From: Candidatus Heimdallarchaeota archaeon B3_Heim
GTDB taxonomy: Archaea; Asgardarchaeota; Heimdallarchaeia; Hodarchaeales; Hodarchaeaceae
Reading direction: 5' to 3'
Assembly (NCBI GenBank): GCA_003144275.1
Contig: NJBF01000006.1
Span: 30,001-62,000, forward strand
DNA: 32,000 nucleotides
Numbering within the stretch: position 1 is the first letter of the stretch; the number at the start of each line of letters is the position of its first letter. A program made the translations under genes and the position numbers. The notes below the pieces were generated by a model, which did not search any database, was not told the origin of the DNA, and saw only the letters and a list, made by a program, of their open reading frames with translations. This document shows, in pieces, positions 1 through 22,328 of this stretch.

Positions 1-602
1 GCTACAACAATAAAACCTGCTTCAAGTAATGTATTCACTTGATCTTTTTCATAAATTTCAGTAGGATCAGGTGAGGGAACAACTCGTCGATATCCACGAC
101 CTGCATCTTCGATAATTGTGAACTCTGGGTGTTCTGTTCGGATTGACTCAGCTTGCTCCTTGGAGTAAAAAGGTCCAACTGGCTTTGTTGGATTTTGAAA
201 GGCTGGATCATCCTTGGATACAACAACTTGTGTGACAAATGTTGTCACCTTAATTTTTTCTTGCGGATTCAACCTGCTTGGAGGGCCTTCCTTTAGCAAT
301 AGATTACCTAGGATATTCTGTATTAAATACCCAATTTGTCCTTGTGTCATTGCTCCGCAGATATCCATTGGAAGTACAGGTCGGTTGAATGGAGGATGAC
401 TACCTGCTTCCATCTGAAGCATGATATTTCCCACCTGTGGGCCATTCCCATGAGTAATTACGACTCGATTTTTTGGAACTACTTTCATTATCTGTTTCGC
501 AGTTTCGGTAATATTCTCAATTTGTTCTTCTATTGTTCCTCTTTGTTTCCCCTTGATCATGGCATTCCCGCCAAGTGCGATTACTAGTAATGGTTTGAGC
601 AT
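1..602 (-). CDS. arcC: Carbamate kinase (3' part runs off the window start)
   Basis: Not in the ORF track. Manual minus-strand translation from ATG at 602 gives MLKPLLVIALGGNAMI...VITHGNGPQVG...TQGQIGY...TQVVVSKDDPAFQNPTKPVGPFY...EDAGRGYRRVVPSPDP, the diagnostic carbamate kinase motifs. AGGT ribosome-binding site 6 nt upstream. Confidence 0.96.
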   Translation of the reverse strand, partial: MLKPLLVIALGGNAMIKGKQRGTIEEQIENITETAKQIMKVVPKNRVVITHGNGPQVGNIMLQMEAGSHPPFNRPVLPMDICGAMTQGQIGYLIQNILGNLLLKEGPPSRLNPQEKIKVTTFVTQVVVSKDDPAFQNPTKPVGPFYSKEQAESIRTEHPEFTIIEDAGRGYRRVVPSPDPTEIYEKDQVNTLLEAGFIVV

Positions 603-763
603 AGAATTACCTGCTTTTCTTGAAATAATAGTCGATTTGAGATAAATATGATTCATACAAAAATTTGTTTCACTAAGAATTGGTTTCTTTCTTGGGAAAA
701 TATTACCACATTAATAATTTATTAAGAGTAAAACTTATTCTGTTTCTAAACGCGGTATTTCAA

Positions 764-1984
764 ATGTCTATTGATCTTTTCTCCAAAATTCAAAGTAGAT
801 ATCCCTCTTCTTTAGACAGAAATATTAGTTTAATACTGTTAATCAATATGGTATTTACAATTCCATGGGGGTTAATTCAACCTTTTATCAGTCCGTACTT
901 CTTTGAGCTTACTCAAGGTGATTATTATTTAACGGGATTACTCAACGGGATTCCATTAATGACGATGGTGGTGTCAGTTTTTGTATTTGGATGGATAGTA
1001 GATAAAATCGGTTCAAAAATAGTAATGATGGCAGGATTCATTATTTTCATTATCCTTTTCATAACCTTATTACTGATAAGTGATCCCCTCTTATTTTTTA
1101 TTGATTACATTATACTTTATAGTCTTTTGTCGTGTTTCAACCCTGCTGTACTGAAATATACAAGCTTATTACAGAGTAAAATTAATATATTCGGTGCACT
1201 AGCTGCTTCAACATCTTTTGGATATTTTCTTGGTTCTTATGTCGGGGGAAATTTATTTGATATATTTGGTATGGATCTCCTATATTTCCTTGGTCTACTT
1301 GTCTGTATATTCGGATTTATACTTGTTCTTTTCGTTACAGATTTACAAAATGAAGAAGCAATTACACTCCCATATTCTTCGAATCCTAATAATTCTAATT
1401 CCCAAAATATTTTATCTATTTTGTTTAACTCAAGAATTTTAGTGGTTCTATTAATAATAGGAGTGATCCAATCCCTACAAGGTTCTTTTGCAGGTATGTT
1501 TTTTTCAGTGTATTTTATTTCGGAACTTGGAGCCCCAGCATCATTATTGGGTTTGGTATTTGGTATTGCTACATTAGCTGGCACATTTGCCTCTCATTAT
1601 GCAGGTAAATTCGGTGAAAAACGTGGATATAAACCGATTCTGTTCATCTGTTATGTTGGATACTTACTAATCTGGACAACTATGTATTTTTCAGTAAATG
1701 ATTATGTATTACCAGCGCTTGCCTATACATTACCTATATACATTGGATTAATGGTTACAGGCCCAGTTATAATAACCAAGTATGTTCCAGAAAAAAGAAG
1801 AGGAACTTTCATGGGACTATTTAGTGGAAGTCAAAATTTAGGATTTGGTATTGGAACAATCCTTGGAGGAGTATATGCAGGTATACAACAAACCATCCGT
1901 TTCAATTTCGGAGTTTCCGCAATTTTGTCAGTGATATTAATTCTATTTCTATTAATTGCATTTAAAGAAGAAAAAAGAGGCTAG
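764..1984 (+). CDS. Major facilitator superfamily transporter
   Basis: About 12 hydrophobic segments. MFS motif A GWIVDKIGSK and second-half repeat GKFGEKRG. ATG at 764 (MSIDLF) preferred over the TTG at 680. Substrate unknown. Confidence 0.9.
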   Translation: MSIDLFSKIQSRYPSSLDRNISLILLINMVFTIPWGLIQPFISPYFFELTQGDYYLTGLLNGIPLMTMVVSVFVFGWIVDKIGSKIVMMAGFIIFIILFITLLLISDPLLFFIDYIILYSLLSCFNPAVLKYTSLLQSKINIFGALAASTSFGYFLGSYVGGNLFDIFGMDLLYFLGLLVCIFGFILVLFVTDLQNEEAITLPYSSNPNNSNSQNILSILFNSRILVVLLIIGVIQSLQGSFAGMFFSVYFISELGAPASLLGLVFGIATLAGTFASHYAGKFGEKRGYKPILFICYVGYLLIWTTMYFSVNDYVLPALAYTLPIYIGLMVTGPVIITKYVPEKRRGTFMGLFSGSQNLGFGIGTILGGVYAGIQQTIRFNFGVSAILSVILILFLLIAFKEEKRG

Positions 1985-2559
1985 GCTAGTTTTAGCAGAT
2001 TTTCCAAACATAGCAAATTAGTTAATGAAAGATCAAATCGTTCCTCAAGATTGGTTTGATCTTGAGGGTTATTTATTCGATTTACGAATACAAATAGCCC
2101 AGCTAAAATTCCTTCGTGATCCAAAATCGTCTTCAAGATAGGTACTTTACTGATTCCGGAAGTGATGACATCATCTACTAATAAAATTCGCTTATTCCTA
2201 ATATTTCCTTCAATGAGCTTCTTAGTTCCATGGTCTTTTTGTTGTATCCGAGCTAAATAAAATTCTTTTTCTAGTTCTAGAGCTAAGGCAGCACCCAATG
2301 GGATCCCTGCTAGTGGAGGAGCAATTATTCCATCAAATTCTTCATCTAACCTTGATCTTTTTATATACTTGGAAGTCAGCTTAATTATAGCCTTAAATTC
2401 GTTTGGGAAATTGGGTAGTATTCGTAAATCTATGTAAACAGGAGAGATTGACCCATCTTTCAAAGTAAAACTACCAAACTGCACAACATTGACTTTTTGA
2501 AGAATTTTCACTAGTTCTTGAATCTCTGAATTTGTTAAATTAATCAATTGTCTCACCAA
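1981..2559 (-). CDS. pyrE: Orotate phosphoribosyltransferase
   Basis: FTLKDGSISPVYIDLR, PRPP-binding LLVDDVITSG, flexible loop QKDHG. Start is TTG 2559 or the in-frame TTG at 2547. Confidence 0.95.
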   Translation of the reverse strand: MVRQLINLTNSEIQELVKILQKVNVVQFGSFTLKDGSISPVYIDLRILPNFPNEFKAIIKLTSKYIKRSRLDEEFDGIIAPPLAGIPLGAALALELEKEFYLARIQQKDHGTKKLIEGNIRNKRILLVDDVITSGISKVPILKTILDHEGILAGLFVFVNRINNPQDQTNLEERFDLSLTNLLCLENLLKLA

Positions 2560-2655
2560 TATTTACTAAGGTTTCATTCCAATTCTTCTTAATTTCTTAG
2601 TTTATTAATAGAAGAATTTTAAATTCCATCCTTATGTGATTTTTTACTGATTATA

Positions 2656-3426
2656 ATGCAATTTCTGGACTTATTAAATAAATCTAAGCAAGAATCAAAA
2701 AGCCAAATATGTGTTGGCTTAGATCTAGCTGCTTTTGGAACCAGAGAGCAATATACTCTTAAGAAAGAACAGGACAAAGTAGTTGTATTATTGAACTTAA
2801 TAGAAAACCTATATTCACGATGTTGCGCATTTAAAATTAATCGACAGTACATTCTTGATCTTACCTCACCTGAAATACAACAAATTACACAAGCATCCCA
2901 TAAACATAGTAGGCCAATAATTATTGATCACAAACTTTCTGATATTGGTTCTACCAACCGACAGGCCATACAACATTTTGCAAAAGAGGGTTTTGATGCA
3001 TTTACAGCTAGTCCATTTCCTGGAAACGTACAAAATCTTTGTGAAACAGCTCATAATTCAGATCTAGCCGTAATTTTGTTAATATTAATGTCAAATCCAG
3101 AAGCAATCTGGATGAAAAAAGCCTATATCGAGAAGGTTCCTGTATTTCAGTTTAATGCTATTTTAGCAAATGAATTCGCGGATGGAGTCGTTATTGGCGC
3201 CACTGGTCATGTTACCAATGAGAACTTGCATACAATTAAATCTGAAATTTCAGGAAAAGTTGTTTTAGCACCTGGAGTTGGCGCTCAGGGAGGAGATGTG
3301 AAATCATTAGTAAATATTTTTCACAAAGACGTGATCTTTAATGTTGGAAGAAGTATTATCTATCAAGATGATCCTCTTCAAGTGCTACAGTCGTATAATG
3401 AATTAGTTAGAAAACATACTGGGTAA
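2656..3426 (+). CDS. pyrF: Orotidine-5'-phosphate decarboxylase
   Basis: VGLD, catalytic DHKLSDIGST (DxKxxDI), PGVGAQGG, VGRSI. Confidence 0.95.
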   Translation: MQFLDLLNKSKQESKSQICVGLDLAAFGTREQYTLKKEQDKVVVLLNLIENLYSRCCAFKINRQYILDLTSPEIQQITQASHKHSRPIIIDHKLSDIGSTNRQAIQHFAKEGFDAFTASPFPGNVQNLCETAHNSDLAVILLILMSNPEAIWMKKAYIEKVPVFQFNAILANEFADGVVIGATGHVTNENLHTIKSEISGKVVLAPGVGAQGGDVKSLVNIFHKDVIFNVGRSIIYQDDPLQVLQSYNELVRKHTG

Positions 3427-3430
3427 TAAT

Positions 3431-4678
3431 TTGTTATTAACTAACGCTAAAATCTGGGTTACAGATAGGATTATTGAAGGAAATCTACTTCTCGATGATG
3501 AGAGCGGAGTTATACAAAGTATTTTCAAAAGCTCATCTTCTACAAATGAGCAGAATGAATTCAAGATTAATTTAAGGAAGAAATTAATTATACCAAGTTT
3601 AATTGATATTCATTGCCATTTACGAGATTTTAATGAATCGCACAAAGAAACTTATCAAACTGGTGCAAAAGCAGCCGCTGCAGGTGGATATACTCACGTT
3701 TTTGATATGCCAAACAAGCAACCCGCAGTTATTTCGAATAAACAAATACAGGGAATTAATAAAACTATTAAAAATCTTAACTCTGTCAAAATTACCCCCT
3801 TTTTACTATTATGTAGTGAAACAGAAGAACTTCTGAAATATAAATATCCTTTTTTGAAAGCCTATCTAGGATTAACTACTGGTAATTATCTTACAACAGA
3901 ATTAGATATACAGAATTTCATTCAGAATTCTTCTTCTTTCTTAAGTGTCCATTGTGAAGATAATGAACTTATTGAAAGAAATAAAATAAAGATGAAAGAT
4001 GAATTAAAGGATCATTGTGAAATAAGAGGGGCAGAAACGGAATTAACCTCTCTTTCAACGCTTCTTCGGATAAAAAATGAGCTTAAGTCTAATGCAACCC
4101 TTCATGTTGCTCATTTGACGCTTACAAGATCTATTGATATGCTTAAAAATAAAAATATCTCTTTCGAAGTAACACCCCATCATTTACTTCTTAATCGCGA
4201 TGATTACACCCGTCTCGGAGTGTGGGGTAAAATGAATCCTCCACTAAGAAATAAAAATGAGCAAGGTATGTTATTGAAAGCATTTTTGGAAGGCAGAATA
4301 CCTATAATCGCAACTGATCATGCCCCACATACAAAGGAGGAGAAAGTTAATTCTCTTAGAGCAGGAGTCCCTGGGCTTGAAACTACTCTTCCTCTTTTAC
4401 TAGACAAACTCAAACCTTTAGATATTCAAAAAATCCAGTTAATAATAGATGTATTAGCAACAAATCCAAGAAAAATTATGAAATCCTCATCCAGAGGTAT
4501 TATTGCCGAAGGTGAGGTGGCTGATCTGACAATAATAGATTTAAATATGATTAAAGAAGTAAAAGGAGAAAATCTCTACACAAAATGTAATTGGAGTCCT
4601 TGGGAAGGAAAAAAAATGAAAGGATGGCCTGTAATGACCATTAGAGAAGGCCGAATCATCCATAACGATCTATTCTGA
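3431..4678 (+). CDS. pyrC: Dihydroorotase
   Basis: Amidohydrolase motifs IDIHCHLRD, AAAGGYT, DMPN, VHCED, HVAH, KMNPPLR, TDHAPH. Directly follows pyrF. Confidence 0.93.
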   Translation: MLLTNAKIWVTDRIIEGNLLLDDESGVIQSIFKSSSSTNEQNEFKINLRKKLIIPSLIDIHCHLRDFNESHKETYQTGAKAAAAGGYTHVFDMPNKQPAVISNKQIQGINKTIKNLNSVKITPFLLLCSETEELLKYKYPFLKAYLGLTTGNYLTTELDIQNFIQNSSSFLSVHCEDNELIERNKIKMKDELKDHCEIRGAETELTSLSTLLRIKNELKSNATLHVAHLTLTRSIDMLKNKNISFEVTPHHLLLNRDDYTRLGVWGKMNPPLRNKNEQGMLLKAFLEGRIPIIATDHAPHTKEEKVNSLRAGVPGLETTLPLLLDKLKPLDIQKIQLIIDVLATNPRKIMKSSSRGIIAEGEVADLTIIDLNMIKEVKGENLYTKCNWSPWEGKKMKGWPVMTIREGRIIHNDLF

Positions 4679-4710
4679 CTTCATTTTAGAATAAGATACA
4701 CTCGAGTCTC

Positions 4711-5559
4711 TTAAAGAGGATATTTCGACCCATTTGCATTCCTACCAAATGAACCAAAGTCTGTTATCTTTTGTAGAACATCGCCGCGAAACACTGGGCC
4801 ATCACGACAAATACTGAGACCAACGCCATCTAAATAACAGGAACCGCAAATACCAAAACCACAACGAATGTACCTGTCTGCTAAGCTAAATTGAGCATTT
4901 TTCTCAAGGTTAAATTGATTTACAATATCTAAAATGCCTTTAAGCATTTTTTCTGGTCCACAGGAATAGATCTCATGGGATAAATTTTTTTGTTGAGCTT
5001 TTTGAAGAATTTCCTCTAATATAATAGTCGGAAAACCATGGAAACCAAATGATCCGTCATCTGTACAATAACGAATGTCAATATCAGTGTTATTCAATTC
5101 CTCCTTAAAGAACAGTTCATCGTGAGTTCTTGCACCATGAATGAGAAGTATTTTTTTTTGAGTCCTTGATATCAAAGTGGAAATTATGAATCTCAAGGGT
5201 GCAATTCCCATTCCACCTGCAATAATAATAGCTACTTCTTTATCGCTTATATCAAAACCATTACCATAAGGACCACGTAGACCAACTAAGTCACCTTTAT
5301 TCATTCTGAGAAAATTAGCTGATGTTTGCCCTTTTGAGCATATTGTAAACTGAATTTTTTCATTATTTTCAATTTGGCTTATCGAGATGGGTATTTCATC
5401 GTCTCCTGGAAGCCATAACATGAAGTATTGGCCTGGAATGGGATCAAGCTCAAGATTTGCAGGCAAATGAAAAGAAAAAGTCGCTGTCTTTTCACCCTCA
5501 AATACTAGGTCTGTAATCGTTAAACAAAGTGGAATTTCAATTCGATTCTGCTTATTCAT
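4711..5559 (-). CDS. pyrK: Dihydroorotate dehydrogenase electron-transfer subunit
   Basis: PGQYFMLW, LRGPYGNGF, IAGGMGIAP, SCGP, [2Fe-2S] motif CGFGICGSC...CRDGPVF. Start overlaps the pyrD stop. Confidence 0.93.
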   Translation of the reverse strand: MNKQNRIEIPLCLTITDLVFEGEKTATFSFHLPANLELDPIPGQYFMLWLPGDDEIPISISQIENNEKIQFTICSKGQTSANFLRMNKGDLVGLRGPYGNGFDISDKEVAIIIAGGMGIAPLRFIISTLISRTQKKILLIHGARTHDELFFKEELNNTDIDIRYCTDDGSFGFHGFPTIILEEILQKAQQKNLSHEIYSCGPEKMLKGILDIVNQFNLEKNAQFSLADRYIRCGFGICGSCYLDGVGLSICRDGPVFRGDVLQKITDFGSFGRNANGSKYPL

Positions 5560-6484
5560 GGGCTAGTCCCCTTAGTTGACTGAATGATTTCCCCTCTCTC
5601 GAAAGATACTCATTTAATCCATTTAGAATGTTATGAACGAGTGTTTGAGGAGCATCATAATCGATTAAAGCTGAACCAATTTGGATAGCCGTTGCTCCAG
5701 CAAGAATATATTCAATTGCATCTTGCCAAGAACTTATTCCTCCCACCCCAACAAGAGGTATCTCTGAACCGAATCTTTCGTATAGATCATAAATCACCCT
5801 TACTCCTATTGGTTTTATTGCCTGACCAGATAAACCACCAGAAATGTTTCCTAATACTGGTTTTTTAATGTGAATATCAATCATCATAGCTTTTATTGTA
5901 TTAATTGCAACAATAGCATCTGCACCTGCAGAAATCGCAGATTCAGCAACTGATTTAATATTCGTGATGTTTGGAGTCAATTTCACCCAAATGGGTACTT
6001 TAGTTCTAACTTTACATGCTTCTACTATAGTGTATACAATATTTGGGTCTGTGCCCACGGCTATGCCAACTTTTTTAGCGTGAGGACAACTTAAGTTCAA
6101 CTCATAGGCGATTGGAGTGTTCCCAGTTAAGTTATTATCCATATGTTGAATTATTTGTTGAAATTCAGTTGATGAAGAACCAAAGATCGAGACTGAATAT
6201 TTTACCTCATGGTTAATTTCACGGAGTTCTTCACTAAATGCATCATATCCTGGGTTGGCTAATCCAACAGCATTCAAAATAGACTTTATTTCAGGAATAT
6301 AGATAACTGAAGGGTTTGGATGACCTTTTCGCGGGTTTAACCCAACGGATTTTGTAGTTACTGCTCCAAATCCTTCTTTATACGCCCGATTAAGTGTTGA
6401 ATATGTTGATCCCCAAATACCAGAAGATAAAATTATCGGATTCCTTATTCTTACTGTTCCAATGAGAGTTTGGAGCTCTGTCAT
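5552..6484 (-). CDS. pyrD: Dihydroorotate dehydrogenase family 1B catalytic subunit
   Basis: GAVTTKS, NAVGLANPG, ELNLSCPH, VKLTPN, INT, GGLSGQAIKP, VGGI. Coupled to pyrK. Confidence 0.95.
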   Translation of the reverse strand: MTELQTLIGTVRIRNPIILSSGIWGSTYSTLNRAYKEGFGAVTTKSVGLNPRKGHPNPSVIYIPEIKSILNAVGLANPGYDAFSEELREINHEVKYSVSIFGSSSTEFQQIIQHMDNNLTGNTPIAYELNLSCPHAKKVGIAVGTDPNIVYTIVEACKVRTKVPIWVKLTPNITNIKSVAESAISAGADAIVAINTIKAMMIDIHIKKPVLGNISGGLSGQAIKPIGVRVIYDLYERFGSEIPLVGVGGISSWQDAIEYILAGATAIQIGSALIDYDAPQTLVHNILNGLNEYLSREGKSFSQLRGLAHE

Positions 6485-6497
6485 ATCTTGATCTCAA

Positions 6498-7007
6498 TTA
6501 CTGTATTAATGAAATATTTTCAAGGATTTTGAAGATCTTATCACAGTATACGCACCGAAGGCTTAGGTTTTCACGGTTTCCAACTTCATTACTTCCAATA
6601 ACAGTAAATTCTGTTTCTACATCTTCTCGTAAGTTTGTAATGCAGCTAATTCCTGGACATTTGATAACACCGTAGGCTTTCTCAGGAGTTTGAATTTTTT
6701 CTTTGTGGACAATGTGATAATTCTCTATACAGATAAAATTGCTTCCCGATATTAATAACCCTAAGAGATCTAAATTTAGATCTTCCTTACCTATATTCCT
6801 GATTTTAAGAACATCTTTTCTCCCGAGTTTTTTAGAAGGAACGTTCATTGCTATAAATACCGAATGAGGGAAATGCACATCAATATTTAATGCTTGTAAA
6901 ACGTAAAATGCTCCTCCAGTAACAATATGATCGATAACAATTCCATTATCAATTTTTTTTACTGAAAGTTGTTTATCATTAGATTTTGTCTTAGCCAATA
7001 TTCTCAA
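6498..7007 (-). CDS. pyrI: Aspartate carbamoyltransferase regulatory subunit
   Basis: LSVKKIDNGIVIDHI, VPSKKLGRKDVLKI, zinc ligands KCPGISCITN and RCVYCD. TTG start at 7007 or 6998. Confidence 0.95.
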   Translation of the reverse strand: MRILAKTKSNDKQLSVKKIDNGIVIDHIVTGGAFYVLQALNIDVHFPHSVFIAMNVPSKKLGRKDVLKIRNIGKEDLNLDLLGLLISGSNFICIENYHIVHKEKIQTPEKAYGVIKCPGISCITNLREDVETEFTVIGSNEVGNRENLSLRCVYCDKIFKILENISLIQ

Positions 7008-7008
7008 C

Positions 7009-7947: not shown

Positions 7948-8147
7948 TAGTATTTTTCTCCATGTTTATACGGATTGATGGTTCCAACATCCATATTCAA
8001 ATAACCATCAAATTTCAAAGGTGAAACATTATATCCAGTTGAATCTAGAATTTTTGCGAGGGAGGCAGCCAATAATCCTTTTCCCAACCCAGACATGACT
8101 CCCCCAGTGATTATGATATATTTAGGAGTTATTATCTTAGCCTCCAA
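7947..8147 (-). pseudogene. pyrG: CTP synthase N-terminal stub (66 codons), truncated after HGE
   Basis: [16 protein letters not shown]...[20 protein letters not shown] matches the PyrG N-terminus. It then ends KY-stop, with TAA overlapping the pyrB ATG (TAATG). About 85% of the enzyme is absent. Confidence 0.88.
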
Positions 8148-8390
8148 TAGTATTAGTGGATTTACTTAGGTTTTTGTATTCAAACAAGGTAGTTTTTCTA
8201 TTCTTATAAATGTAAGTCATTTATATCTATCATACTGATTGTAGGATTGTATACCCGAAATTCTCTATTACAAAATTCTTTTCTTTTTGACCTGTAGGTA
8301 ACATCAATCGAGGATTAAATTTCGGAGTAATGCGCTCTTTTTCATCCACTTTTAATTTAATGGATTAACCTGAGATGTTTTAGCCATTAT

Positions 8391-8432
8391 AAAAGGAAAA
8401 AAGGAGAGAGAAAGCAGATAGGAAAAAAAATA
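8391..8432 (-). terminator. Probable oligo-T terminator after the carbamoyltransferase gene
   Basis: A/G-rich plus-strand tract, read as T-rich runs on the minus strand 35-75 nt past the stop at 8468. Confidence 0.4.
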
Positions 8433-8467
8433 CACTTGAAAAATACCGAGATAGATAAGCCTCGGGA

Positions 8468-11720: not shown

Positions 11721-11913
11721 GAGGCCTTTATTTGTATGCAATTCTCTTAGCAATCCCTTTCTAGGGTAATCTCTCCTCATGTAGATGAACTTCAAATTTG
11801 TTATTGACACTAGCGAGCATAACATTTATGGATCTAAATCCTCTTTCCTAACATATAAGAGCAATGATAAACGTCTAGAGGTCCCATTATCAAGTTAATA
11901 AACCAGTATACTC

Positions 11914-13041: not shown

Positions 13042-13056
13042 TCAAATTATTAGTGA

Positions 13057-13932: not shown

Positions 13933-14019
13933 TATAGTTCACCTTTAAATTTCGTTAAGATGCAATATTATTCTTTTTATGAATTCCTGAATTTAAACAA
14001 TACTAATACTTCTTGATAA

Positions 14020-15360
14020 TTACTCTAGGTAATATTTTTCTGCTTCACTTAAAGCTCTTTCAATGATGGTTATACCTTCTTGAATTTGTTCTTCTGTTAT
14101 AATCAATGGAGGTGCACAGAAGATCCAATTCCATCTAACAAAGGTGCTCAACCCGTTTTCCCGCAAGATCTTTGCAACTTTCTGCATAGGTTCCGTAAGT
14201 GGACTGTTGAAGGGACTTAAGGGTTGACGGGTACCCCGATTCTTAACTAATTCAATAACATAATGCAATCCGATACCACGAATCTCACCTACAACTTGAT
14301 ATTTCTCATGAAGCTTCATCAATTCTGTATAAAGATTTTTTCCCATTTCCTCTGATCGTTTTATCAGATTATCGTTTTGATAAACCTCAATATTGGCAAC
14401 AGCAGCCGCACATCCAAGGGTGTGAGAGCTATTAGTTAGACCACACCAGAGTACATTATCATCAAAATGGGAGGCGATCTCTCCTGAAACTACTGCTGCA
14501 CCAAGTGGTACATAAGCACTAGTAATACCCTTTGCAAGGCACATAATATCTGGTTTGACTTGTGGTTGATGGTTAATTCCAAACCATTTACCAGTCCTGC
14601 CAAAACCACTCATTACCTCATCAATAATCAACAAAATATTGTATTTGTTACAAATCTCCTGAATACGATCCCAAAAGACCTTTCCACCTTGCATAATACC
14701 GCTGGATCCACTATATCCCTCAAGTAATATTGCGGCAACATTTTGTGGACCTTCAAACAGGATTGTTTCTTCAATAAGGTCTGCGATGACAGAATCACCT
14801 TCTTCTACTGTTTTATTCCGATATATAGGATTTCGGTAAGCATATGGACCATGAACATAAACAATCCAAGGAAGTCCTGGCTCATTAGCCAAACGACGAG
14901 GATCTCCTCCTGCGGTCATTGCACCAAAGGTTCCTCCATGATAAGAACGGTAACGAGTAATAATTTTTTGACGACCCGTATACAAACGGGCGATTTTCAT
15001 AGCATTTTCAATAGCTTCAGCCCCTCCATTAGTGAAAAATGCTTTACAGTCCTTCATTGGAACGATTTCATTAAGCATTTCACCCAACCGAGCTCGCGCT
15101 TCAGTAGCTATACTTGGAGAGACATAGCAAAATTTGGCTAGCTGATCTTGGATTGCCTGATTTACATATTGATTCCCATGCCCAATGTTTACATTGATTA
15201 ATTGAGAAGACCAGTCTAGATGTTTTTTCCCCTCTGTATCCCAAAGATATACTCCTTTTGCTTTTTCTATGGCAATCGGATTCCAGCTTGATTGAGATTT
15301 CCAACTTGACAATGTATATTTCTTATTTTTTTCAACCATTTCATTTTGAGTCATACCCAT
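14020..15360 (-). CDS. Class III PLP aminotransferase, probable beta-alanine aminotransferase
   Basis: SYHGGT, LIIDEVMSGFGRTG, PLP lysine CLAKGITS. Lies between the ureidopropionase and malonate-semialdehyde dehydrogenase genes. Confidence 0.88.
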   Translation of the reverse strand: MGMTQNEMVEKNKKYTLSSWKSQSSWNPIAIEKAKGVYLWDTEGKKHLDWSSQLINVNIGHGNQYVNQAIQDQLAKFCYVSPSIATEARARLGEMLNEIVPMKDCKAFFTNGGAEAIENAMKIARLYTGRQKIITRYRSYHGGTFGAMTAGGDPRRLANEPGLPWIVYVHGPYAYRNPIYRNKTVEEGDSVIADLIEETILFEGPQNVAAILLEGYSGSSGIMQGGKVFWDRIQEICNKYNILLIIDEVMSGFGRTGKWFGINHQPQVKPDIMCLAKGITSAYVPLGAAVVSGEIASHFDDNVLWCGLTNSSHTLGCAAAVANIEVYQNDNLIKRSEEMGKNLYTELMKLHEKYQVVGEIRGIGLHYVIELVKNRGTRQPLSPFNSPLTEPMQKVAKILRENGLSTFVRWNWIFCAPPLIITEEQIQEGITIIERALSEAEKYYLE

Positions 15361-15387
15361 AATTCGTTCACCAGATTTTAATTTCCA

Positions 15388-15789
15388 CTACTTTTCTTCT
15401 GATAAATTTTTAAGGTTACTATGTTCTTTTTGACATCGCTTTAACACACGTCTAGTCTCTAAAACATTGATCTTAGGTGTAACATCGAAATAAAAGGTGA
15501 TTACCTGCTTTTCCAGGGTATCTATCTCTTGAGGGGATGTACCTGACAGATTCAACTGATACTTTTTTTCATCCAACCCTTCGATTGGTTCAAGGGTTAT
15601 CTCCGTTATGTTTTCTCTACGAGACCGTTCTAACCTTTGTTTACGTTTTACACATGCTTTTGCTCTTTTTGAAAACTCCTCAGAAAGGGCCCCATTCTCT
15701 TTGGAGGCTAATTCTTTGTATAATTCCTCCAATTTTTCTTCTAAAAGAATTGCAAAAGATAAAATTGATCCAAATTGTGTTAAAGACAC
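15388..15789 (-). CDS. Ferritin/rubrerythrin-like four-helix protein with degenerate metal site
   Basis: FAILLEEKLEELYKELA resembles rubrerythrin helix 1 (E-x6-Y). C-terminal CQKEH. Predominantly helical; GTG start with an upstream GAGTGG site. Confidence 0.6.
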   Translation of the reverse strand: MSLTQFGSILSFAILLEEKLEELYKELASKENGALSEEFSKRAKACVKRKQRLERSRRENITEITLEPIEGLDEKKYQLNLSGTSPQEIDTLEKQVITFYFDVTPKINVLETRRVLKRCQKEHSNLKNLSEEK

Positions 15790-15847
15790 CTATTCCACTC
15801 AGTTCCTTAGTATAAGCCAATCTTTAAAGATAAATTCGATGATAAAT

Positions 15848-17299
15848 TTATACCCACCGCTCTATTACTACTTTGTAATCTGTATAAAAGCGAACAGAAT
15901 CTGGGCCTTGTCCATGTAAATCTCCGAAGAATGAATCATTTTTACCACCAAAAGGAAAAGAAGCAGTTGCTGCGGCTACGCCAACATTGACACCAATATT
16001 CCCTGCATTTACCCGATATTTGAATTCTCGAGCATAACCACCTTTTTGGGTAAAAATGCTGGCAGCATTTCCATAATTAGAAGCATTAATAGTTGTTACC
16101 GCTGTTTCAAAATCAGGAACATGAATTATACTCATAACTGGTCCAAAAATTTCTTCTTGTGCTAGTGTCATATCAGGAGTTACTTTATCAAAGATAGACG
16201 GGCCAATAAAATTTCCAGTTTCATATCCGTCAACCACTAGATTACGACCATCTAACAATAATTCCGCTCCTTCATCTATACCTTTTTTAATCATCCCAAG
16301 AATGCGTTCTTTTGATTTTTGGGTTGCTATAGCTCCCATTTGGCTTGCATCATCGAGCCCATAACCCACCTTGAGTTTTCTGGCTGCAGTTAACAATTCT
16401 TTTTTCAAAGATTCATAAATATCTCCTACAGCAAGTACAACTGAACCCGCCAGACAACGTTGTCCCGCGCAGCCATAAAATGAACCCATTATATTCGGGA
16501 CGGCAGTAGCCAAATTAGCATCAGACATCACGGCAAGGTAATTCTTGGCACCACCTTGAATTTGGACTCTCTTCCCATGCTTAGTAGATTTCTCATAGAT
16601 GATTTTTCCTACAGTCGAGGAACCCACAAAAGAAACTCCCTTCACATCAGGATGTTCCATTAAGGCATTAGCTGCATCCACACCTCCGTGGACTAGGTTT
16701 ACAACTCCTTCAGGTAATTCCACTTCTTCCCAAAGTTTAAAAACATAATCCATCGTTAGAGGAGTAGTAGGCGATGGTTTCACAACCATAGTGTTACCAC
16801 ATGCAATTGCAACTGGTAAAAACCACATAGGAACTAAAAATGGGAAATTAAACGGAGCTAACATTGCAAAAACTCCGAGAGGTTGGCATTCTGCTGTTTC
16901 ATCTATACCTGATGAAATATCTTCAACTTTAAATCCTGTCATTAACGAGGGGACACTAAAGGCAAACTCAACGCTCTCAATTCCTCTCCTAACTTCACCC
17001 CTTGCCTCATCTATTGTTTTACCAGCCTCCTTAACAACAAGTTTTGATATCTTTTCAAAATGTTCTTCTAATAAATTTTTAAACGTCATCAGGTATCGAG
17101 TACGACTAAGGACAGGTGTTTGTCTCCATTCCACATAAGCTGTGGATGCTGCATTGACTGCACGCTTAACATCATCAGGTGTTGAATCAGGACATTCCGC
17201 GAGAACTTCTTGAGTTCCAGGATTTATCACTGGGGTGAATTTCTCAGTTGTAGCTTCGACCCATTCTCCATTAATCAGATTTCTCAGTTGGGTGGTCAT
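15848..17299 (-). CDS. mmsA: CoA-acylating (methyl)malonate-semialdehyde dehydrogenase
   Basis: APFNFP, VKPS, SFVGSS, RVQIQGGAKNY, catalytic GCAGQRCLA, EEIFGPV, YGNAASIFT, SFFGDLH. Confidence 0.93.
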   Translation of the reverse strand: MTTQLRNLINGEWVEATTEKFTPVINPGTQEVLAECPDSTPDDVKRAVNAASTAYVEWRQTPVLSRTRYLMTFKNLLEEHFEKISKLVVKEAGKTIDEARGEVRRGIESVEFAFSVPSLMTGFKVEDISSGIDETAECQPLGVFAMLAPFNFPFLVPMWFLPVAIACGNTMVVKPSPTTPLTMDYVFKLWEEVELPEGVVNLVHGGVDAANALMEHPDVKGVSFVGSSTVGKIIYEKSTKHGKRVQIQGGAKNYLAVMSDANLATAVPNIMGSFYGCAGQRCLAGSVVLAVGDIYESLKKELLTAARKLKVGYGLDDASQMGAIATQKSKERILGMIKKGIDEGAELLLDGRNLVVDGYETGNFIGPSIFDKVTPDMTLAQEEIFGPVMSIIHVPDFETAVTTINASNYGNAASIFTQKGGYAREFKYRVNAGNIGVNVGVAAATASFPFGGKNDSFFGDLHGQGPDSVRFYTDYKVVIERWV

Positions 17300-17399
17300 G
17301 GTCTTTCTATTCCTCTTTTTTCTAATAATTTCTTCTAAAGTTATTTCTCATTATTTACTGTAGGCTATTTGATACTTTTTGAATTGGATGAAAGTTACA

Positions 17400-18794
17400 T
17401 TATAAAAAGTTGCCTGAGAAACCTCTTTTCACAAATTTCCCATAACCTTTTTCTCCCACGCATTTTCCTTCCTTTCCGACGACTTTACCCCTTACAATGG
17501 TTAGATAAGGATAACCTTGTAGCTGTTTATCTTGAAAAGGACTCCAATCACAGTTAGTCTCCATTTTTCGATAATCCACAGTTAAATTAATCTCAGGATC
17601 AAAAACAACTAAATCTGCATCGGCTCCGATGTTAAGAGATCCTTTCTGTGGGTACATTCCAAATACTTTGGCTGGATTTGTACTTCCAAGCTCAACCATT
17701 TTATTGAGAGAAATTTTTCCAGTCCTAACCCCATCGTTATAAAGTAAGGGCATCATCAACTCAGTTCCAGGTAGTCCAAAAGGTATCTTAGTGAAATCAC
17801 CGTTCCACATGTTCTTTTGTTCAGTGTTGAATGTGCAGGTATCAGTTCCAATAGTTTGGACTGAACCATCTCGTAAGCCTGCCCATAATCGTTGTCCATC
17901 GGCTTCACTTTTTATCTGAGGACAAGTGGCAAAATAATGGCCGTTATCACCTTTAAAAACATCTTCATTTAATATCAAGTATTGGGGGCCTGTTTCTGCT
18001 ATAACATTCACCCCTCGTGCTCTTGCCGCTTTTACTAAATCAGCACCTTCACCTGTAGACATATGCACTATGAACAAGTGCCCTCCAGTATACTCAGCCC
18101 ATGTAATGGCTCTCTGAATAGCTTCAGCTTCAATAATGTTAGGTCGGGTGATAACATGGAGCCAAGCACCGTGTTTCTCCATTTCTTCTTGTGTATGATG
18201 TTTAGCAATTAATGAATCCAATAAATCTACTGATTCGGCATGAACTTGAATCATTCCCCCTAGTTTCTTTGTCACCTCCAGAGCGTCGATAAGGACTGGA
18301 TCTGTCGTAAGCCAGCCTTCACTCTTATAAATCATGAACATTTTGAATGAGCTAATTCCATCTTTAATTATCTCGGAAATTTCTTGTCTAGTACTTGCAT
18401 TCCAATCAGTGATACCTCCATGAAGCGAATAATCTACAAACACTTCCCCGTCAGCTTCAGCTTTCCTACTCTTAATGGCATCCTTGAGTGAACTTCCCTT
18501 GGCTTGAATAGCAAAGTCAACGACCGTTGTTACTCCACCAGCTGCTGCAGCTCTTGTACCTGTTTCAAAAGAATCTGCTGAAATTGTACCACTAAAGGGT
18601 AGAGAAAGATGTACATGTGCATCTATGAAACCAGGCAAAACAAATTTCTCGGATGCATCTATAATTCTACTTCCATTATCAGGTGTCAAATTTCCTATAG
18701 TTTGTACTTTACTGTCTTTAATACCAATATCAGCGACATAAGAATCACTGGCTGTGACAATTGTTCCATTCTTTACAATTAAATCCATCTTCAT
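17400..18794 (-). CDS. hydA: Dihydropyrimidinase (D-hydantoinase)
   Basis: IDAHVHL, AAAGGVTT, SFKMFM (carbamylated Lys), VHAES, IVHMST, AETGPQYL, GTDTC, PFGLPG. Confidence 0.94.
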   Translation of the reverse strand: MKMDLIVKNGTIVTASDSYVADIGIKDSKVQTIGNLTPDNGSRIIDASEKFVLPGFIDAHVHLSLPFSGTISADSFETGTRAAAAGGVTTVVDFAIQAKGSSLKDAIKSRKAEADGEVFVDYSLHGGITDWNASTRQEISEIIKDGISSFKMFMIYKSEGWLTTDPVLIDALEVTKKLGGMIQVHAESVDLLDSLIAKHHTQEEMEKHGAWLHVITRPNIIEAEAIQRAITWAEYTGGHLFIVHMSTGEGADLVKAARARGVNVIAETGPQYLILNEDVFKGDNGHYFATCPQIKSEADGQRLWAGLRDGSVQTIGTDTCTFNTEQKNMWNGDFTKIPFGLPGTELMMPLLYNDGVRTGKISLNKMVELGSTNPAKVFGMYPQKGSLNIGADADLVVFDPEINLTVDYRKMETNCDWSPFQDKQLQGYPYLTIVRGKVVGKEGKCVGEKGYGKFVKRGFSGNFL

Positions 18795-19073
18795 AACTCC
18801 TTGTCTTATTATTCCAATGATTTTGATAATTGTTGAATTCTCATAATAATAAATAAAGAAAGTAATGATTTGTAGAGTTTATTCAACCAATCTATAAAAA
18901 GAACAGGAAAAATACATTGATTATATTTTTTTCTACCAGTTTTCATATCTGAATAACAATTCTTCTATAAGTAATGGTACAATTTCAGAGGAATTTTTAA
19001 TTGAAGAGAAATTTGTCTTGAAGTACTTTTCCTTGTATCTAGATGATACTTTAGGGCTATATTATAGAAGAGC

Positions 19074-20252
19074 GTGATATTTTTGCCAGGTTTGAACGTA
19101 AATTTTGCTGGTGTCGAGTTTGAGAATCCATTTCTACTGTCCTCTGCACCACCAACGAAAGATGGAACTCAAATTAAAAGAGCTATCGAATTGGGTTGGG
19201 GTGGTGCGGTAACAAAGTCATTACTCCTAGTTCCAGATAAAAATACGAGACCTAGATTAGGATTTCTGAAGTTAGGCAAACGGATGATAGGAATGAGTAA
19301 TATTGAAATGGCTACAGAATTGTCTCTAGAACGATGGAAGAAGGAAATAGTTATCGCTAAAACACCTGGTGCTCCGATTATAGGATCTATCATGACAGAT
19401 TCAGATCCAGAAAACTGGGTAAAGCTGACAAAAATAGTTGAAGAAACTGGAGTTGATATGCTTGAATTAAATGTTTCTTGTCCCCATATGTCTCCTGAAA
19501 AACATATGGGCGCCTTAATAGGACAAGATTCAGCATTAATTACTTTAATAACTAAAAATGTTAAAGAAAATTGCTCAATTCCCGTCATTGTAAAATTAAC
19601 CCCCAATGTAACTAGTATCCCAGACATGACAATTGCTGCAAAAACTGGTGGTGCAGACGCTATTTCAGCTATCAATACTGTACTATCTCTAATCGGAGTG
19701 GATATTGAGACAGGAATACCCAATCCAAGTTCCCAAGGAAAATCCACTTTTGGAGGTTATTCAGGACCTGGTGTAAGACCCATTGCTCTGAGAGTTGTCG
19801 CAGAAATCGCACAAACAACTAATTTACCAATATCAGGAATAGGAGGCGTTGATAGTTGGAAATCAGCTATTGAGTTCATAATGGTTGGAGCAACAACAGT
19901 ACAAGTATGCACCGCAATCATGTGGAGAGGTTATAAAATTGTTGAGAATTGGAAAAAGGGATTACAGAGTTTCATGGAAAGAAAAGGTTATCGTTCTTTA
20001 AATGAATTTACAGGTAAATCTTTGCAATTTCTCCATCCTTTTTCAGATTTTAAGACTGAACCGCCCATAAAAGCGAGAGTAACACATGCAGATAGCTGTA
20101 ACGGGTGTGGAATTTGTGTGACTTCTTGTGGAGATGGTGCTTATAATGCTATCACATTAGAAGATTCTGATGTAGCAATTGACGATCAAATTTGTGATGG
20201 ATGCGGTTTGTGTGTGAATGTTTGCCCTCAAAATGTTATGACTATGGGTTGA
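19074..20252 (+). CDS. preA: Dihydropyrimidine dehydrogenase FMN/Fe-S subunit PreA
   Basis: NPFLLSSAP, GWGGAVTKS, ELNVSCPH, VKLTPN, FGGYSGPGVRP, two C-terminal [4Fe-4S] motifs CNGCGICVTSC and CDGCGLCVNVCP. The start may be the TTG at 19083. Confidence 0.93.
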   Translation: MIFLPGLNVNFAGVEFENPFLLSSAPPTKDGTQIKRAIELGWGGAVTKSLLLVPDKNTRPRLGFLKLGKRMIGMSNIEMATELSLERWKKEIVIAKTPGAPIIGSIMTDSDPENWVKLTKIVEETGVDMLELNVSCPHMSPEKHMGALIGQDSALITLITKNVKENCSIPVIVKLTPNVTSIPDMTIAAKTGGADAISAINTVLSLIGVDIETGIPNPSSQGKSTFGGYSGPGVRPIALRVVAEIAQTTNLPISGIGGVDSWKSAIEFIMVGATTVQVCTAIMWRGYKIVENWKKGLQSFMERKGYRSLNEFTGKSLQFLHPFSDFKTEPPIKARVTHADSCNGCGICVTSCGDGAYNAITLEDSDVAIDDQICDGCGLCVNVCPQNVMTMG

Positions 20253-20261
20253 TCTCTTGAT

Positions 20262-20300
20262 GAGAAAGAAAAAGCCATCTTTCTCTCACTTCTTTTTCTC
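20262..20300 (+). terminator. Probable terminator after preA (8-bp stem plus T-rich tail)
   Basis: GAGAAAGA (20262-69), 8-nt loop, TCTTTCTC (20278-85), followed by CTTCTTTTTCTC. Confidence 0.5.
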
Positions 20301-20409
20301 ATCCTTTGCTCCTCTTTTTCAATCAGAGTTGGTATTATTCAAAAATTAGTAGAGGTAGTTTTAATAGGAGATTTCACAATAGTTAATTCAAATAACAAGG
20401 TGGTTAAAT

Positions 20410-20904
20410 ATGCCTGAAAAAATTATTCAAGGTGAAAGTAAGCTTAAAGTGGGTGATGAAGCCCCAGATTTTGTTCTCCCAGCACAAGATGGGAAAAAAA
20501 TTCGTTTGTCAGATTATCGTGGAAAAAAGAATGTAATGTTAGCATTCTATCCTCAAGATTTTACTCCTGTATGTTCACATCAGCTTCCTTCTTATAGTAA
20601 ACAAATCAATAAGTTTGAGGAATTGAATACTCAAGTATTAGCCATTGGAGTGGCCTCAATTCCAGTCCACATTGCATGGATTGATTCTTTAGGAGGATTA
20701 AACTACCCATTATTGGCAGATTGGGTACCCGCAGGAGATGTAAGCAAAAAATATGATGCATTTATTCCAAAAATCGGATTTGGTAAAAGGGCGATCTTCA
20801 TCATTGATAAAGAAGGAATAATTCAGTATATTGATATTCCCCACGAGCTAAATGAAGGGCCCCCAGATGAAGCAAAGATCTTTGTTGCGTTAAAAAACCT
20901 TTAA
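20410..20904 (+). CDS. 1-Cys peroxiredoxin (AhpE/AhpC-TSA family)
   Basis: [17 protein letters not shown] (peroxidatic Cys, the only Cys), [15 protein letters not shown] ribosome-binding site. Confidence 0.92.
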
Positions 20905-20975
20905 AGCTAAGAATTTTTCCCTTCTTCTTTTTTCTGTTTTATTATAGCTGTTTTATTTGTGTGAAACTGCCCGTC

Positions 20976-22328
20976 TTAGAGTGGAACGACTCTTGGTGTT
21001 AAATCCAATCTATCCCATAATTTGATAGCCGAATCTTTCGATTGTTGACTGACTTGACTAGCATCAAGGGAAGTATGGATACCATTTTTAACTATCGTTT
21101 TCCCATTCACGACTACTCGCTTGATATCTCTTCGTGAAAACGAACCGTATACCATATGTCCGTACACATTTCCTTCGTGTATGGGGGTAGGTAAAGCAGA
21201 GGTATCTAAAATGACAAAATCTCCTTTTTTACCCACTTCAATTGATCCAATTTGATCCTTTAACCCTATTGCCTGTGCAGCATTAATCGTGATCATTTGA
21301 ACTACCTGTAAGGGTGTGGGAACCTGACTCGGATTTAGGTGATTCAACTTATGCATAAGATAGGCTGTTCGCATATTCTCAATTGCATCGTAAATGAATC
21401 CATCATTCCCTACACCGATGTTTATCCCCTTTTCCAGCATCTCAGGTAATTGAGCAACACCAACCGCGTTAAGTTCATTACTCTTCGGATTATGGGCAAC
21501 ATTTGTATTTGTTTCAGCAATTAGGTCAATTTCACGTTGATTAATATGTACAGCATGAGCGAGAGCTGTTCTTGATCCAAGGAATCCTTCATCATATAGC
21601 CGCTCTACTGTACGTTTTCCATATCTCTCAAGATTGTGTTGAAGGTCAACGAGTCCTTCAGAAGTATGAATTGTCCTAAAAGAATTTGTCTTATCAGCAT
21701 ATTCAACCGTTTTATGCATCAATTCATCTGATACTGTGAAAGATGCGTGCAAACAATAAATACCATAAACAAGCGTTTTTTCAGGATTATTTTGAGAGAT
21801 GAATCTGCGATTTTCCTCTAATCCTCTTCTCCCTTCTTCTTGAGATCGTCGTTCAGTTTGTTCAAAACAAACTGCTCCTCGTGTGCCAACGTCTTGTGTG
21901 GCTTTACTGATTCGATCAAGTGATCCTTCAATAGCATTTGGGCCAGAATAAGTATCTAAGTAAGCAGTAACTCCATTTAATGCTAATTCATATACTGCAT
22001 ACAATGTAGATGTATAAGCATCTTCTAATGTGAGAGCTTCATCCATGGGCCACCAAATTCGTTGTAAATTCTGAGTAAAATCGGTAGGGGGTAAAATGTT
22101 CATTGGTGCGCCCCTAAGTAACGCTGAATACAAGTGTGTATGAGCACAGATAAATCCAGGAAAAATCACCTGATTTTTACAGTCTAATATCTCATCAGCT
22201 TTTTCTTTGATCTCTTTGTCAATTCTGACGATTTCTCCTCCCTCAACTAATACATCCATGGGTAATTTTATTTCGTTATCTGCATTCATGGTTACAACTA
22301 AACCATTTTTTAGTAATAGACTTTCCAT
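20976..22328 (-). CDS. ssnA: SsnA-like metal-dependent amidohydrolase (nucleobase-ring hydrolase/deaminase family)
   Basis: FPGFICAHTHLYS, DFTQNLQRIWWPMDEAL, LHASFTV, IHTSE, HNPKSN, GNDG. Start re-set to ATG 22328, which has GGAG upstream. Confidence 0.75.
   Translation of the reverse strand: MESLLLKNGLVVTMNADNEIKLPMDVLVEGGEIVRIDKEIKEKADEILDCKNQVIFPGFICAHTHLYSALLRGAPMNILPPTDFTQNLQRIWWPMDEALTLEDAYTSTLYAVYELALNGVTAYLDTYSGPNAIEGSLDRISKATQDVGTRGAVCFEQTERRSQEEGRRGLEENRRFISQNNPEKTLVYGIYCLHASFTVSDELMHKTVEYADKTNSFRTIHTSEGLVDLQHNLERYGKRTVERLYDEGFLGSRTALAHAVHINQREIDLIAETNTNVAHNPKSNELNAVGVAQLPEMLEKGINIGVGNDGFIYDAIENMRTAYLMHKLNHLNPSQVPTPLQVVQMITINAAQAIGLKDQIGSIEVGKKGDFVILDTSALPTPIHEGNVYGHMVYGSFSRRDIKRVVVNGKTIVKNGIHTSLDASQVSQQSKDSAIKLWDRLDLTPRVVPL

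Follow-up and report, generated by a model that had tools for sequence, protein, structure and literature searches.

Stepwise accretion of pyrimidine genes onto a carbamoyltransferase and carbamate kinase locus in a Heimdallarchaeal genome

We analyzed a window of 32,000 nt from Candidatus Heimdallarchaeota archaeon B3_Heim (contig NJBF01000006.1, positions 30,001 to 62,000; G000:C93:30001-62000 in our numbering; genome of 3.95 Mb, 94% complete), in which a carbamate kinase (CK) and a carbamoyltransferase, CT-2, lie among genes for the synthesis and the degradation of pyrimidines. The nearest named relatives of its proteins are from Candidatus Hodarchaeales, an Asgard group. A first-pass annotation of the sequence had read this arrangement as a mirror-image cluster, its two halves joined by a carbamoyl phosphate shuttle. 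This designed shuttle is mostly not supported by comparison with relatives. The explanation we favor, with moderate confidence, is a mosaic of three units. The older core comprises a third carbamoyltransferase (CT-3, just left of the window), CK, (MFS), CT-2, (AhpC) and SsnA, plus a second SsnA-family hydrolase and a HyuA-like hydantoinase ∼11 kb to the left, and would most likely serve the reductive urate (2,8-dioxopurine) pathway in an archaeal form that uses two transferases. A de novo pyr operon would then have been relocated to the gap separating MFS from CT-2 in an ancestor shared by this genome and its near-identical relative G008, leaving a truncated pyrG. Recombination would have placed a 10.8-kb catabolic block, present in this genome alone, in the interval from CT-2 to AhpC. 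New here is this dated series of steps, in which genes of pyrimidine synthesis and degradation would have accrued onto a carbamoyltransferase and CK module.

Two insertions in a variable locus

CT-2 loci from ten congeners (Hodarchaeales-like Asgard archaea of the same genus) and several more distant relatives were mapped by BLASTP. The genus backbone runs SsnA2, DHPase2, three to four small genes, CT-3, CK, a variable interval, CT-2, a second variable interval and SsnA, followed by PLD, two thermosome genes and RpoK. CK and CT-3 are adjacent in every congener locus inspected, and SsnA at this position is 81%–96% conserved among congeners. The order CT-3, CK, MFS, CT-2, AhpC, SsnA is seen in G023, G026 and G058; MFS is in the matching position in G008 as well, and the closest relatives also have AhpC, an older backbone gene, between CT-2 and SsnA. 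Both variable intervals are hypervariable in all congeners, with 0–17 kb of differing cargo. The CT-2–SsnA interval of several congeners holds a TrmB-like regulator, an ArsM-like methyltransferase, a ThrC-like pyridoxal phosphate (PLP) enzyme and a ∼1075-aa protein in which only an N-terminal GNAT domain is recognized.

Nucleotide homology (blastn) to G023 and G058 is confined to window positions 1-1976, 8467-9536, and 20334 onward, and the two gaps are the inserted segments. The pyr operon fills the first. A pyrB was found in 16 genomes of the genus, and in only two of them, this genome and G008, does the operon stand between MFS and CT-2. The other 14 carry pyrB elsewhere, ∼3.4 Mb from CT-2 in the closed genome G046. 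Both operon junctions are seen in the independent G008 assembly, and the junction of MFS with pyrE is confirmed by overlapping G008 contigs. Just upstream of pyrB, its end overlapping the start of that gene in the sequence TAATG, lies a pyrG stub that is 80% identical to residues 10-70 of the 545-aa PyrG heading the pyr operon of G056. A complete pyrG stands alone on contig C101 (25669-27294). The stub marks a breakpoint of the operon's relocation.

The second segment is missing from G008, G023 and G058, with G008 jumping from 9535 to 20262. Identity to G008 is ∼99% over the pyr operon and falls to 79% in the 5′ part of CT-2 (8623-9535) and to 88% around AhpC (20262-21260). This identity mosaic points to homologous recombination with a more distant congener, and, because of the drop, the catabolic block seems to have arrived together with diverged flanking DNA. 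Neither the 21 other genomes of the genus nor the class sample yielded a PreA. Paralogs of the block genes, sought in the genome as a sign of mobile elements, were not found, and none of the contigs from four public metagenome runs, all of them short, bridged 9536 or 20262. Taken as a whole, the cluster that suggested a mirror image is thus not kept together in relatives, an outcome that the first-pass annotation had itself listed among those that would count against its model. An arrangement that looks strikingly "designed" can arise where a variable locus gains genes in a few steps, and the first thing to check is therefore synteny with close relatives.

Genes were called from the open reading frame listing and from Pfam and NCBIfam scans of the window (L007 and C93 are our handles for the locus and its contig):

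3-656, minus strand: 5′ part of CK, cut by the window's left edge (arcC, TIGR00746)
L007:17616-18656: full CK, 346 aa (arcC, TIGR00746, 378.7, above the cut-off of 358.25)
L007:16551-17603 (C93:28551-29603, left of the window): CT-3, third carbamoyltransferase, 350 aa, 12 nt after CK
680-1984, plus strand: MFS transporter (Pfam MFS_1, 121 bits), between CK and CT-2
1977-8466: inserted segment 1, de novo pyr operon; homology to G023/G058 lost after 1976 and regained from 8467
1981-2559, minus strand: PyrE (Pfam/NCBIfam)
2656-3426, plus strand: PyrF (Pfam/NCBIfam)
3431-4678, plus strand: PyrC (Pfam/NCBIfam)
4711-5559, minus strand: PyrK (Pfam/NCBIfam)
5552-6484, minus strand: PyrD (Pfam/NCBIfam)
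6498-7007, minus strand: PyrI (Pfam/NCBIfam)
7009-7947, minus strand: PyrB (Pfam/NCBIfam)
7950-8132, minus strand: N-terminal stub of pyrG, 61 codons
8468-9547, minus strand: CT-2, carbamoyltransferase of the AOTCase fold, YgeW-related, 359 aa
9537-20333: inserted segment 2, catabolic block, 10.8 kb, in this genome only
10020-11720, plus strand: 566-aa Lys/Asn-rich protein, no family match in NCBIfam or Pfam
11914-13041, minus strand: methyltransferase-domain protein, 375 aa
13057-13932, minus strand: beta-ureidopropionase-like CN hydrolase
14020-15360, minus strand: class-III aminotransferase
15388-15789, minus strand: 133-aa protein, no family match in NCBIfam or Pfam
15848-17299, minus strand: CoA-acylating malonate/methylmalonate-semialdehyde dehydrogenase (MMSDH)
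17400-18794, minus strand: dihydropyrimidinase (TIGR02033, 466, above the cut-off of 393)
19074-20252, plus strand: PreA-type dihydropyrimidine dehydrogenase with two 4Fe-4S motifs (NF006183, 432, above the cut-off of 335)
20410-20904, plus strand: AhpC-type peroxiredoxin (Pfam AhpC-TSA)
20976-22436, minus strand: SsnA-like amidohydrolase (NF005540, 378 bits, below the 444 cut-off)

The genes that the first-pass annotation named are thus present where it placed them, and the paralogous pairs it pointed out are real: PyrD and PreA both belong to DHO_dh, and PyrC and dihydropyrimidinase are both cyclic amidohydrolases. It recognized CK and one carbamoyltransferase besides PyrB, both of which stand, and missed CT-3, which lies outside the window.

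The catabolic block encodes all five steps of pyrimidine degradation at 13057-20252 (PreA, dihydropyrimidinase, beta-ureidopropionase, beta-alanine aminotransferase and semialdehyde dehydrogenase). The best solved relatives of its CN hydrolase are the Drosophila and human beta-ureidopropionases (205 bits), and that of its PreA is domain IV of pig dihydropyrimidine dehydrogenase (DPD). The most fitting reading of the block is a conventional reductive route of the hydrolytic kind, leading to beta-alanine and then acetyl-CoA or propionyl-CoA; it carries a predicted hydrolytic decarbamoylase of its own and would need no carbamoyltransferase. A like gene set (MMSDH, PreA, aminotransferase, CN hydrolase, dihydropyrimidinase and sometimes the 133-aa protein) is clustered in other Asgard families at 48%–70% identity. 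Two of these families have PreA in 43 of 76 and in 10 of 19 genomes, respectively, and a third has it at 70% identity. No carbamoyltransferase or CK was found in the three homologous pyrimidine clusters inspected in other Asgard families, which argues against synthesis and degradation forming one unit.

Some further observations concern the block. For the two proteins at its left end (566 and 375 aa), the pyrimidine clusters inspected in other Asgard families gave no match. The PreA-type enzymes of the Asgard clusters (the window and loci L051-L053) carry two 4Fe-4S motifs at the C terminus and lack a clustered PreT partner; this genome has GltD-like genes elsewhere, on contigs C87 and C46.

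Carbamoyltransferases in purine-type neighborhoods

The genome has four OTCace-family genes, namely PyrB, CT-2, CT-3 and a canonical ornithine carbamoyltransferase (OTC; TIGR00658, 412 bits) that stands alone on contig C57. CT-2 and CT-3 are 38% identical and both have the Pfam domains OTCace_N and OTCace of the aspartate/ornithine carbamoyltransferase superfamily. CT-2 keeps the carbamoyl phosphate motifs SxRTR, HPCQ and HCLP, the last of which is HPMP in CT-3; S65-R67-T68-R69, H162-P163-Q165 and P320 are invariant in the family alignment. Both score below the cut-off of 288 of the N-acetylornithine carbamoyltransferase (AOTCase) model NF003384 (281.1 for CT-2 and 238.5 for CT-3) and below those of the YgeW models NF005538 (453; 165 and 101, respectively) and TIGR03316 (500; 154 and 100). 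Identity to E. coli YgeW is 33% for CT-2 and 27% for CT-3.

The predicted structure of CT-2 (pLDDT 93.5) superposes best on the knotted AOTCase of X. campestris, with TM 0.86/0.93 and a root-mean-square deviation of 1.9 Å. The top 50 fold matches are AOTCase, OTCase and PTCase, and the YgeW structures 3q98 and 2yfk are not among them. The substrate residues of AOTCase are Trp77 (80's loop), Glu92, Asn185 and Lys302 (PMC4581275); in the alignment of CT-2 to 3kzc, Trp77 is replaced by Thr, Asn185 by Pro and Lys302 by Glu, whereas Glu92 is possibly kept, the alignment register being ambiguous there. In knotted transcarbamylases a proline-rich loop forms a trefoil knot and the 120's loop is extended; CT-2 has an extended 120's loop (IYGSKCKWMYGKGQ), and of the proline-rich loop only KKPLAVPQ is left in CT-2 and nothing in CT-3. 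With these substrate-residue replacements, and with a canonical OTC elsewhere in the genome, CT-2 is by its sequence not a plain (acetyl)ornithine transferase, in line with the first-pass annotation, which had called it non-canonical. It probably acts in catabolism, as a phosphorylase of ureides. Its stop codon is followed by a hairpin and then T-runs, so CT-2 and pyrBIDK are probably separate transcripts; a single transcript of CT-2 and pyrBIDK was considered and judged unlikely.

Neighborhoods of the CT-2 family were scanned with one genome per species. The scan gave 80 loci, of which 28, from ∼10 phyla, hold a CT-2-like gene (identity of at least 38%) and 52 hold an ordinary OTC and served as an internal control. 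Among the CT-2-like loci, CK is present in 17, XDH in 12, M20 in 11, a ThrC-like PLP enzyme in 16, a 489-aa PLP enzyme in 11, an SsnA-family gene in 12 and a second carbamoyltransferase in 13; 25 of the 28 have at least one such purine-type partner (CK, XDH, M20, PLP, SsnA or second carbamoyltransferase). Of the ordinary OTC loci, a single one has CK, none has any of the other partners (XDH, SsnA and the PLP enzymes included), and an ArgD-like gene is present in 31. M20 alone is found in eight CT-2-like loci, a second carbamoyltransferase alone in ten, and both in three, which is a trend only (Fisher p ∼0.1, hand estimate). In other lineages the second transferase is an ATCase-like paralog, or M20/YgeY takes its place.

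In another Heimdall family the full reductive urate enzyme set is clustered: a single cluster holds Se-XDH (895 bits, above cut-off), YgeY (630 bits), a CT-2-like gene, a 487-aa PLP enzyme, a hydantoinase, SsnA, a UacX-like DHO_dh+Fer4 protein and a ThrC-like PLP enzyme. Contigs from Bipolaricaulota, Caldisericota and others show the order (M20), CK, CT-2 type, CT-3 type, XDH or the order carbamoyltransferase, PLP, CK, carbamoyltransferase. Six loci contain both a CT-2-type and a CT-3-type gene. In a maximum-likelihood tree built from 61 transferases, with E. coli YgeW as the only characterized anchor and no AOTCase, SOTCase or PTCase, a CT-3 clade, a CT-2 clade and a large clade containing YgeW fall into one superclade apart from the OTCs (100/99). 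Because this YgeW-related superclade lies with CK, XDH, SsnA/HyuA, M20 and PLP genes, CT-2 and CT-3 are best read as a two-transferase variant of the reductive urate pathway and not as pyrimidine enzymes. The context typical of YgeW, next to CK and among purine-catabolic genes, is also that of our locus, where 12 nt separate CK from CT-3; a catabolic-type carbamoyltransferase and CK module, as first annotated, does exist. If the reading is confirmed, purine fermentation is probably the true role of many proteins of anaerobic bacteria and archaea that databases list as "N-acetylornithine/ornithine carbamoyltransferase".

The bacterial purine pathway and its ATP link through YgeW and YqeA were published in 2025 (PMC12507026; bioRxiv 10.1101/2025.04.24.650524). 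According to these reports, E. coli YgeW phosphorolyses one ureido group of 2,3-diureidopropionate, YqeA then makes ATP, and YgeY hydrolyses the other ureido group; the two disagree on which group goes first. By analogy, we infer the substrates of CT-2 and CT-3 as follows. Ring reduction and two ring openings would give a diureido acid, from which CT-2 and CT-3 would each remove one ureido group by phosphorolysis, and CK would make ATP from both molecules of carbamoyl phosphate. One ureido group per transferase would explain why there are two transferases and no YgeY ortholog here. Two recurrent PLP enzymes would stand in for YgeX. A purine-derived ureide, which the first-pass annotation had offered as an alternative substrate, fits these comparative data.

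Other candidate parts of the pathway are found in the genome. The SsnA-like protein of the window is 30% identical to E. coli SsnA and is the genome's best match to it; SsnA2 is a TRZ/ATZ-type amidohydrolase, 21%–24% identical to SsnA, and DHPase2 is a second hydantoinase, HyuA-like and 37% identical to HyuA. A search for xdh, ygeX, ygeY and ygfK homologs returned four XDH-family large subunits on other contigs, one of them 38% identical to E. coli XdhD, and neither a YgeX or YgeY ortholog nor a clear 2,8-dioxopurine reductase.

Several neighbors of these genes deserve mention. SsnA2 and DHPase2 form a divergent pair at C93:14794-17853 (L007:2794-5853), ∼11 kb from CT-3, and in this genome ∼8 kb of other genes separate the pair from four small genes beside CT-3 (C93:25623-28434; L007:13623-16434). 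The four, kept in all congeners, encode a 279-aa transglutaminase-core protein and proteins of 160, 275 and 109 aa (u160, u275 and u109), for which no NCBIfam or Pfam match was found. A ThrC-like (425 aa) and a CysK-like (489 aa) PLP enzyme adjoin at C48:18384-21160 (L046:8384-11160); both families recur in bacterial and archaeal CT-2-type purine clusters where YgeX is expected. A luciferase-like (F420-type) oxidoreductase lies two genes from this pair. TnpB/IS605-family genes lie beside the pair (C48:22885-24168) and near the stand-alone OTC (C57:176822-178093), which CofE adjoins.

Carbamoyl phosphate supply

The first-pass annotation saw no carAB in the window, and indeed neither carA nor carB was found in the 94%-complete genome by a search that was positive in 14 of 14 control genomes. 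No genome of the class (0 of 61) has carB above cut-off, whereas 52 of 151 in a phylum sample do, all in certain families. A single-copy CK is present in 54 of the 61 class genomes and in all 13 high-quality ones, including families without CT-2 or CT-3. CarAB being not found class-wide, its absence is not a feature of this locus. The CK of the window is the genome's only one and is 40% identical to E. coli YqeA. Neither a canonical arginine deiminase (a 31-bit ADI-family match in a 297-aa frame aside) nor an agmatine deiminase was found in the genome, which supports the first-pass annotation on this point.

Pyrococcus and Thermococcus are proposed to have a CK-like carbamoyl phosphate synthetase, an anabolic CK (review PMC6022934). 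Since the class lacks carB and yet keeps a near-universal single CK, the CK of our archaeon probably also supplies biosynthetic carbamoyl phosphate to PyrB and OTC, by analogy with Pyrococcus. As to the direction of CK flux, we infer from its place in an operon with a catabolic-type transferase that a dual or mainly catabolic role is likely. It is possible, and chemically reasonable, that carbamoyl phosphate derived from CT-2 and CT-3 feeds PyrB and OTC. We regard as unlikely a stronger version, in which carbamoyl phosphate from purine ureides is also passed directly to PyrB and OTC, possibly channeled through CK as in Pyrococcus, so that purine breakdown pays for pyrimidine and arginine synthesis, and in which the relocation of pyr and the arrival of the block reflect selection for one nucleobase-recycling island built on a common pool of carbamoyl phosphate.

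The class-wide pattern of a universal CK without CarAB is new here. In the literature open to our search we found no paper on it, and none on CK, carbamoyl phosphate or dihydropyrimidine dehydrogenase in Asgard archaea. If confirmed, it would mean that the archaeal class closest to eukaryotes makes carbamoyl phosphate without CarAB, through one CK that is also part of a catabolic operon, which matters for any attempt to reconstruct how the archaeal ancestor of eukaryotes handled nucleotides and arginine.

Alternatives and known systems

A number of points weigh against a mosaic with a purine-degrading core. The substrates of CT-2 and CT-3 are suggested by gene neighborhood, and the pathway parts are scattered in this genome, with XDH-type genes on contigs C45 and C49 and the PLP pair on C48. 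YgeX, YgeY and a clear reductase were, as said, not found. CT-2 is slightly closer to X. campestris AOTCase (35%, TM 0.86/0.93) than to YgeW (33%), the tree was built without AOTCase or SOTCase sequences, and YgeW sits on a long branch (1.46) that leaves its placement unsure. As to the insertions, a single assembly shows the junctions of the 10.8-kb block, and two pyrimidine-related insertions in the same ∼10-kb locus of a 4-Mb genome are unlikely if sites are random. Co-location could have been selected, in which case we underrate a functional link; given that both intervals are hypervariable in all congeners, a recombination hot spot explains the paired insertions equally well.

A rival idea is that CT-2 and/or CT-3 phosphorolyse pyrimidine ureides (N-carbamoyl-beta-alanine or N-carbamoyl-beta-aminoisobutyrate) and that the cluster is one evolved unit shuttling carbamoyl phosphate to PyrB or CK. 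All parts lie within 22 kb, both insertions concern pyrimidine metabolism, CarAB was not found, and a catabolic beta-alanine transcarbamylase has been proposed and never found (PMC4581275). We nevertheless consider it very unlikely that pyrimidine ureides are the substrates, as the first-pass annotation proposed: CT-2, CT-3 and CK are kept in at least 14 congeners without PreA, the block encodes its own beta-ureidopropionase-type hydrolase, the three homologous Asgard clusters do without carbamoyltransferase or CK, the transferase family travels with purine-type genes (25 of 28 loci), and a terminator-like hairpin with T-runs separates CT-2 from pyrB. Nor is the block at all likely to be foreign Asgard DNA joined to the contig by mis-assembly, an explanation to which we give very little credence. 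Its presence in one assembly, the lack of a public contig bridging 9536 or 20262, a slightly higher G+C content (0.36-0.39 versus 0.33-0.35) and a nearest PreA that is 70% identical and from another family would all fit such an error; such an error would, however, have to have joined the 110-kb contig at two exact points, both of them intergenic, and the flanks (5′ CT-2 and AhpC) are diverged from G008 (79%–88%) yet contain intact genes, as recombination predicts.

Other objections concern what the transferases act on. They may be catabolic for a ureide that is not a diureidopropionate intermediate, such as an allantoin-derived ureide, citrulline, carbamoylputrescine or a hydantoin-derived N-carbamoyl amino acid; the low identity of SsnA2 to SsnA and its resemblance to TRZ/ATZ deaminases, the missing YgeX, YgeY and clear reductase, and conserved partners that are two uncharacterized PLP enzymes rather than YgeX are in line with this. 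We find it doubtful, given that arginine and agmatine deiminases were not found and that XDH, SsnA, hydantoinase and DHO_dh+Fer4 recur in the family's clusters. Alternatively, CT-2 and CT-3 could be biosynthetic, as acyl-ornithine transcarbamylases or makers of another carbamoylated product, with a purely anabolic CK feeding them and PyrB. AOTCase is the best model and the best fold match, databases give relatives the name AOTCase, and CK is near-universal in a class without CarAB. This seems quite improbable when set against scores of 281 and 238 where AOTCase requires 288, the loss of Trp77, Asn185 and Lys302, the lack of arginine genes nearby (ArgD is beside the ordinary OTC in 31 of 52 loci) and the 412-bit canonical OTC on C57.

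CT-2 resembles X. campestris AOTCase (PDB 3kzc and others) in being 35% identical, its best sequence and fold match, and in having the extended 120's loop and a KSW motif instead of DxxxSMG. It differs from AOTCase in the three substrate residues and the sub-threshold score, and its neighbors are CK, MFS and SsnA, not arginine biosynthesis genes; proximity to CK was used by Shi et al. 2015 (PMC4581275) as a mark of the catabolic YgeW type. The inserted block, in turn, resembles reductive pyrimidine catabolism in that PreA/PydA, dihydropyrimidinase and beta-ureidopropionase are encoded together. Unlike the known pathway, its PreA has no PreT partner in the cluster, and its decarbamoylase is of the eukaryote-type CN-hydrolase form as opposed to the bacterial M20 PydC. 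The block is common to other Asgard families and was acquired here by transfer.

As in Pyrococcus and Thermococcus, CarAB was not found, ATCase and OTCase are kept, and there is a single CK, but the CK of our archaeon is co-operonic with a catabolic-type transferase. By its source the host is not a hyperthermophile; marine sediment and cold-seep metagenomes hold small parts of the sequence, which is weak evidence. A search of public sequencing runs for the sequence listed no RNA run that contains it.

The closest likeness is to the E. coli/Clostridium urate cluster, xdhD-ygfK-ssnA-hyuA-ygeW-ygeY-ygeX-yqeA (PMC12507026; bioRxiv 10.1101/2025.04.24.650524), of which our archaeon has homologs of YqeA (40%), HyuA (37%), YgeW (33% and 27%), SsnA (30%) and XdhD (38%, on another contig, unlike the clustered xdhD of E. 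coli). In both, a transferase adjoins CK, and the clusters of relatives hold XDH, YgeY and the UacX-like DHO_dh+Fer4 protein; the logic expected to be shared with YgeW and YqeA is phosphorolysis of a ureido group to carbamoyl phosphate and its conversion to ATP by CK. The differences are that the genes are scattered here in an Asgard host, that ThrC-like and CysK-like PLP enzymes recur where YgeX was not found, and that two transferases of distinct clades replace the pair of YgeW and the M20 hydrolase YgeY. If confirmed, the two-transferase version could conserve both ureido groups of a purine as ATP, whereas E. coli conserves one.

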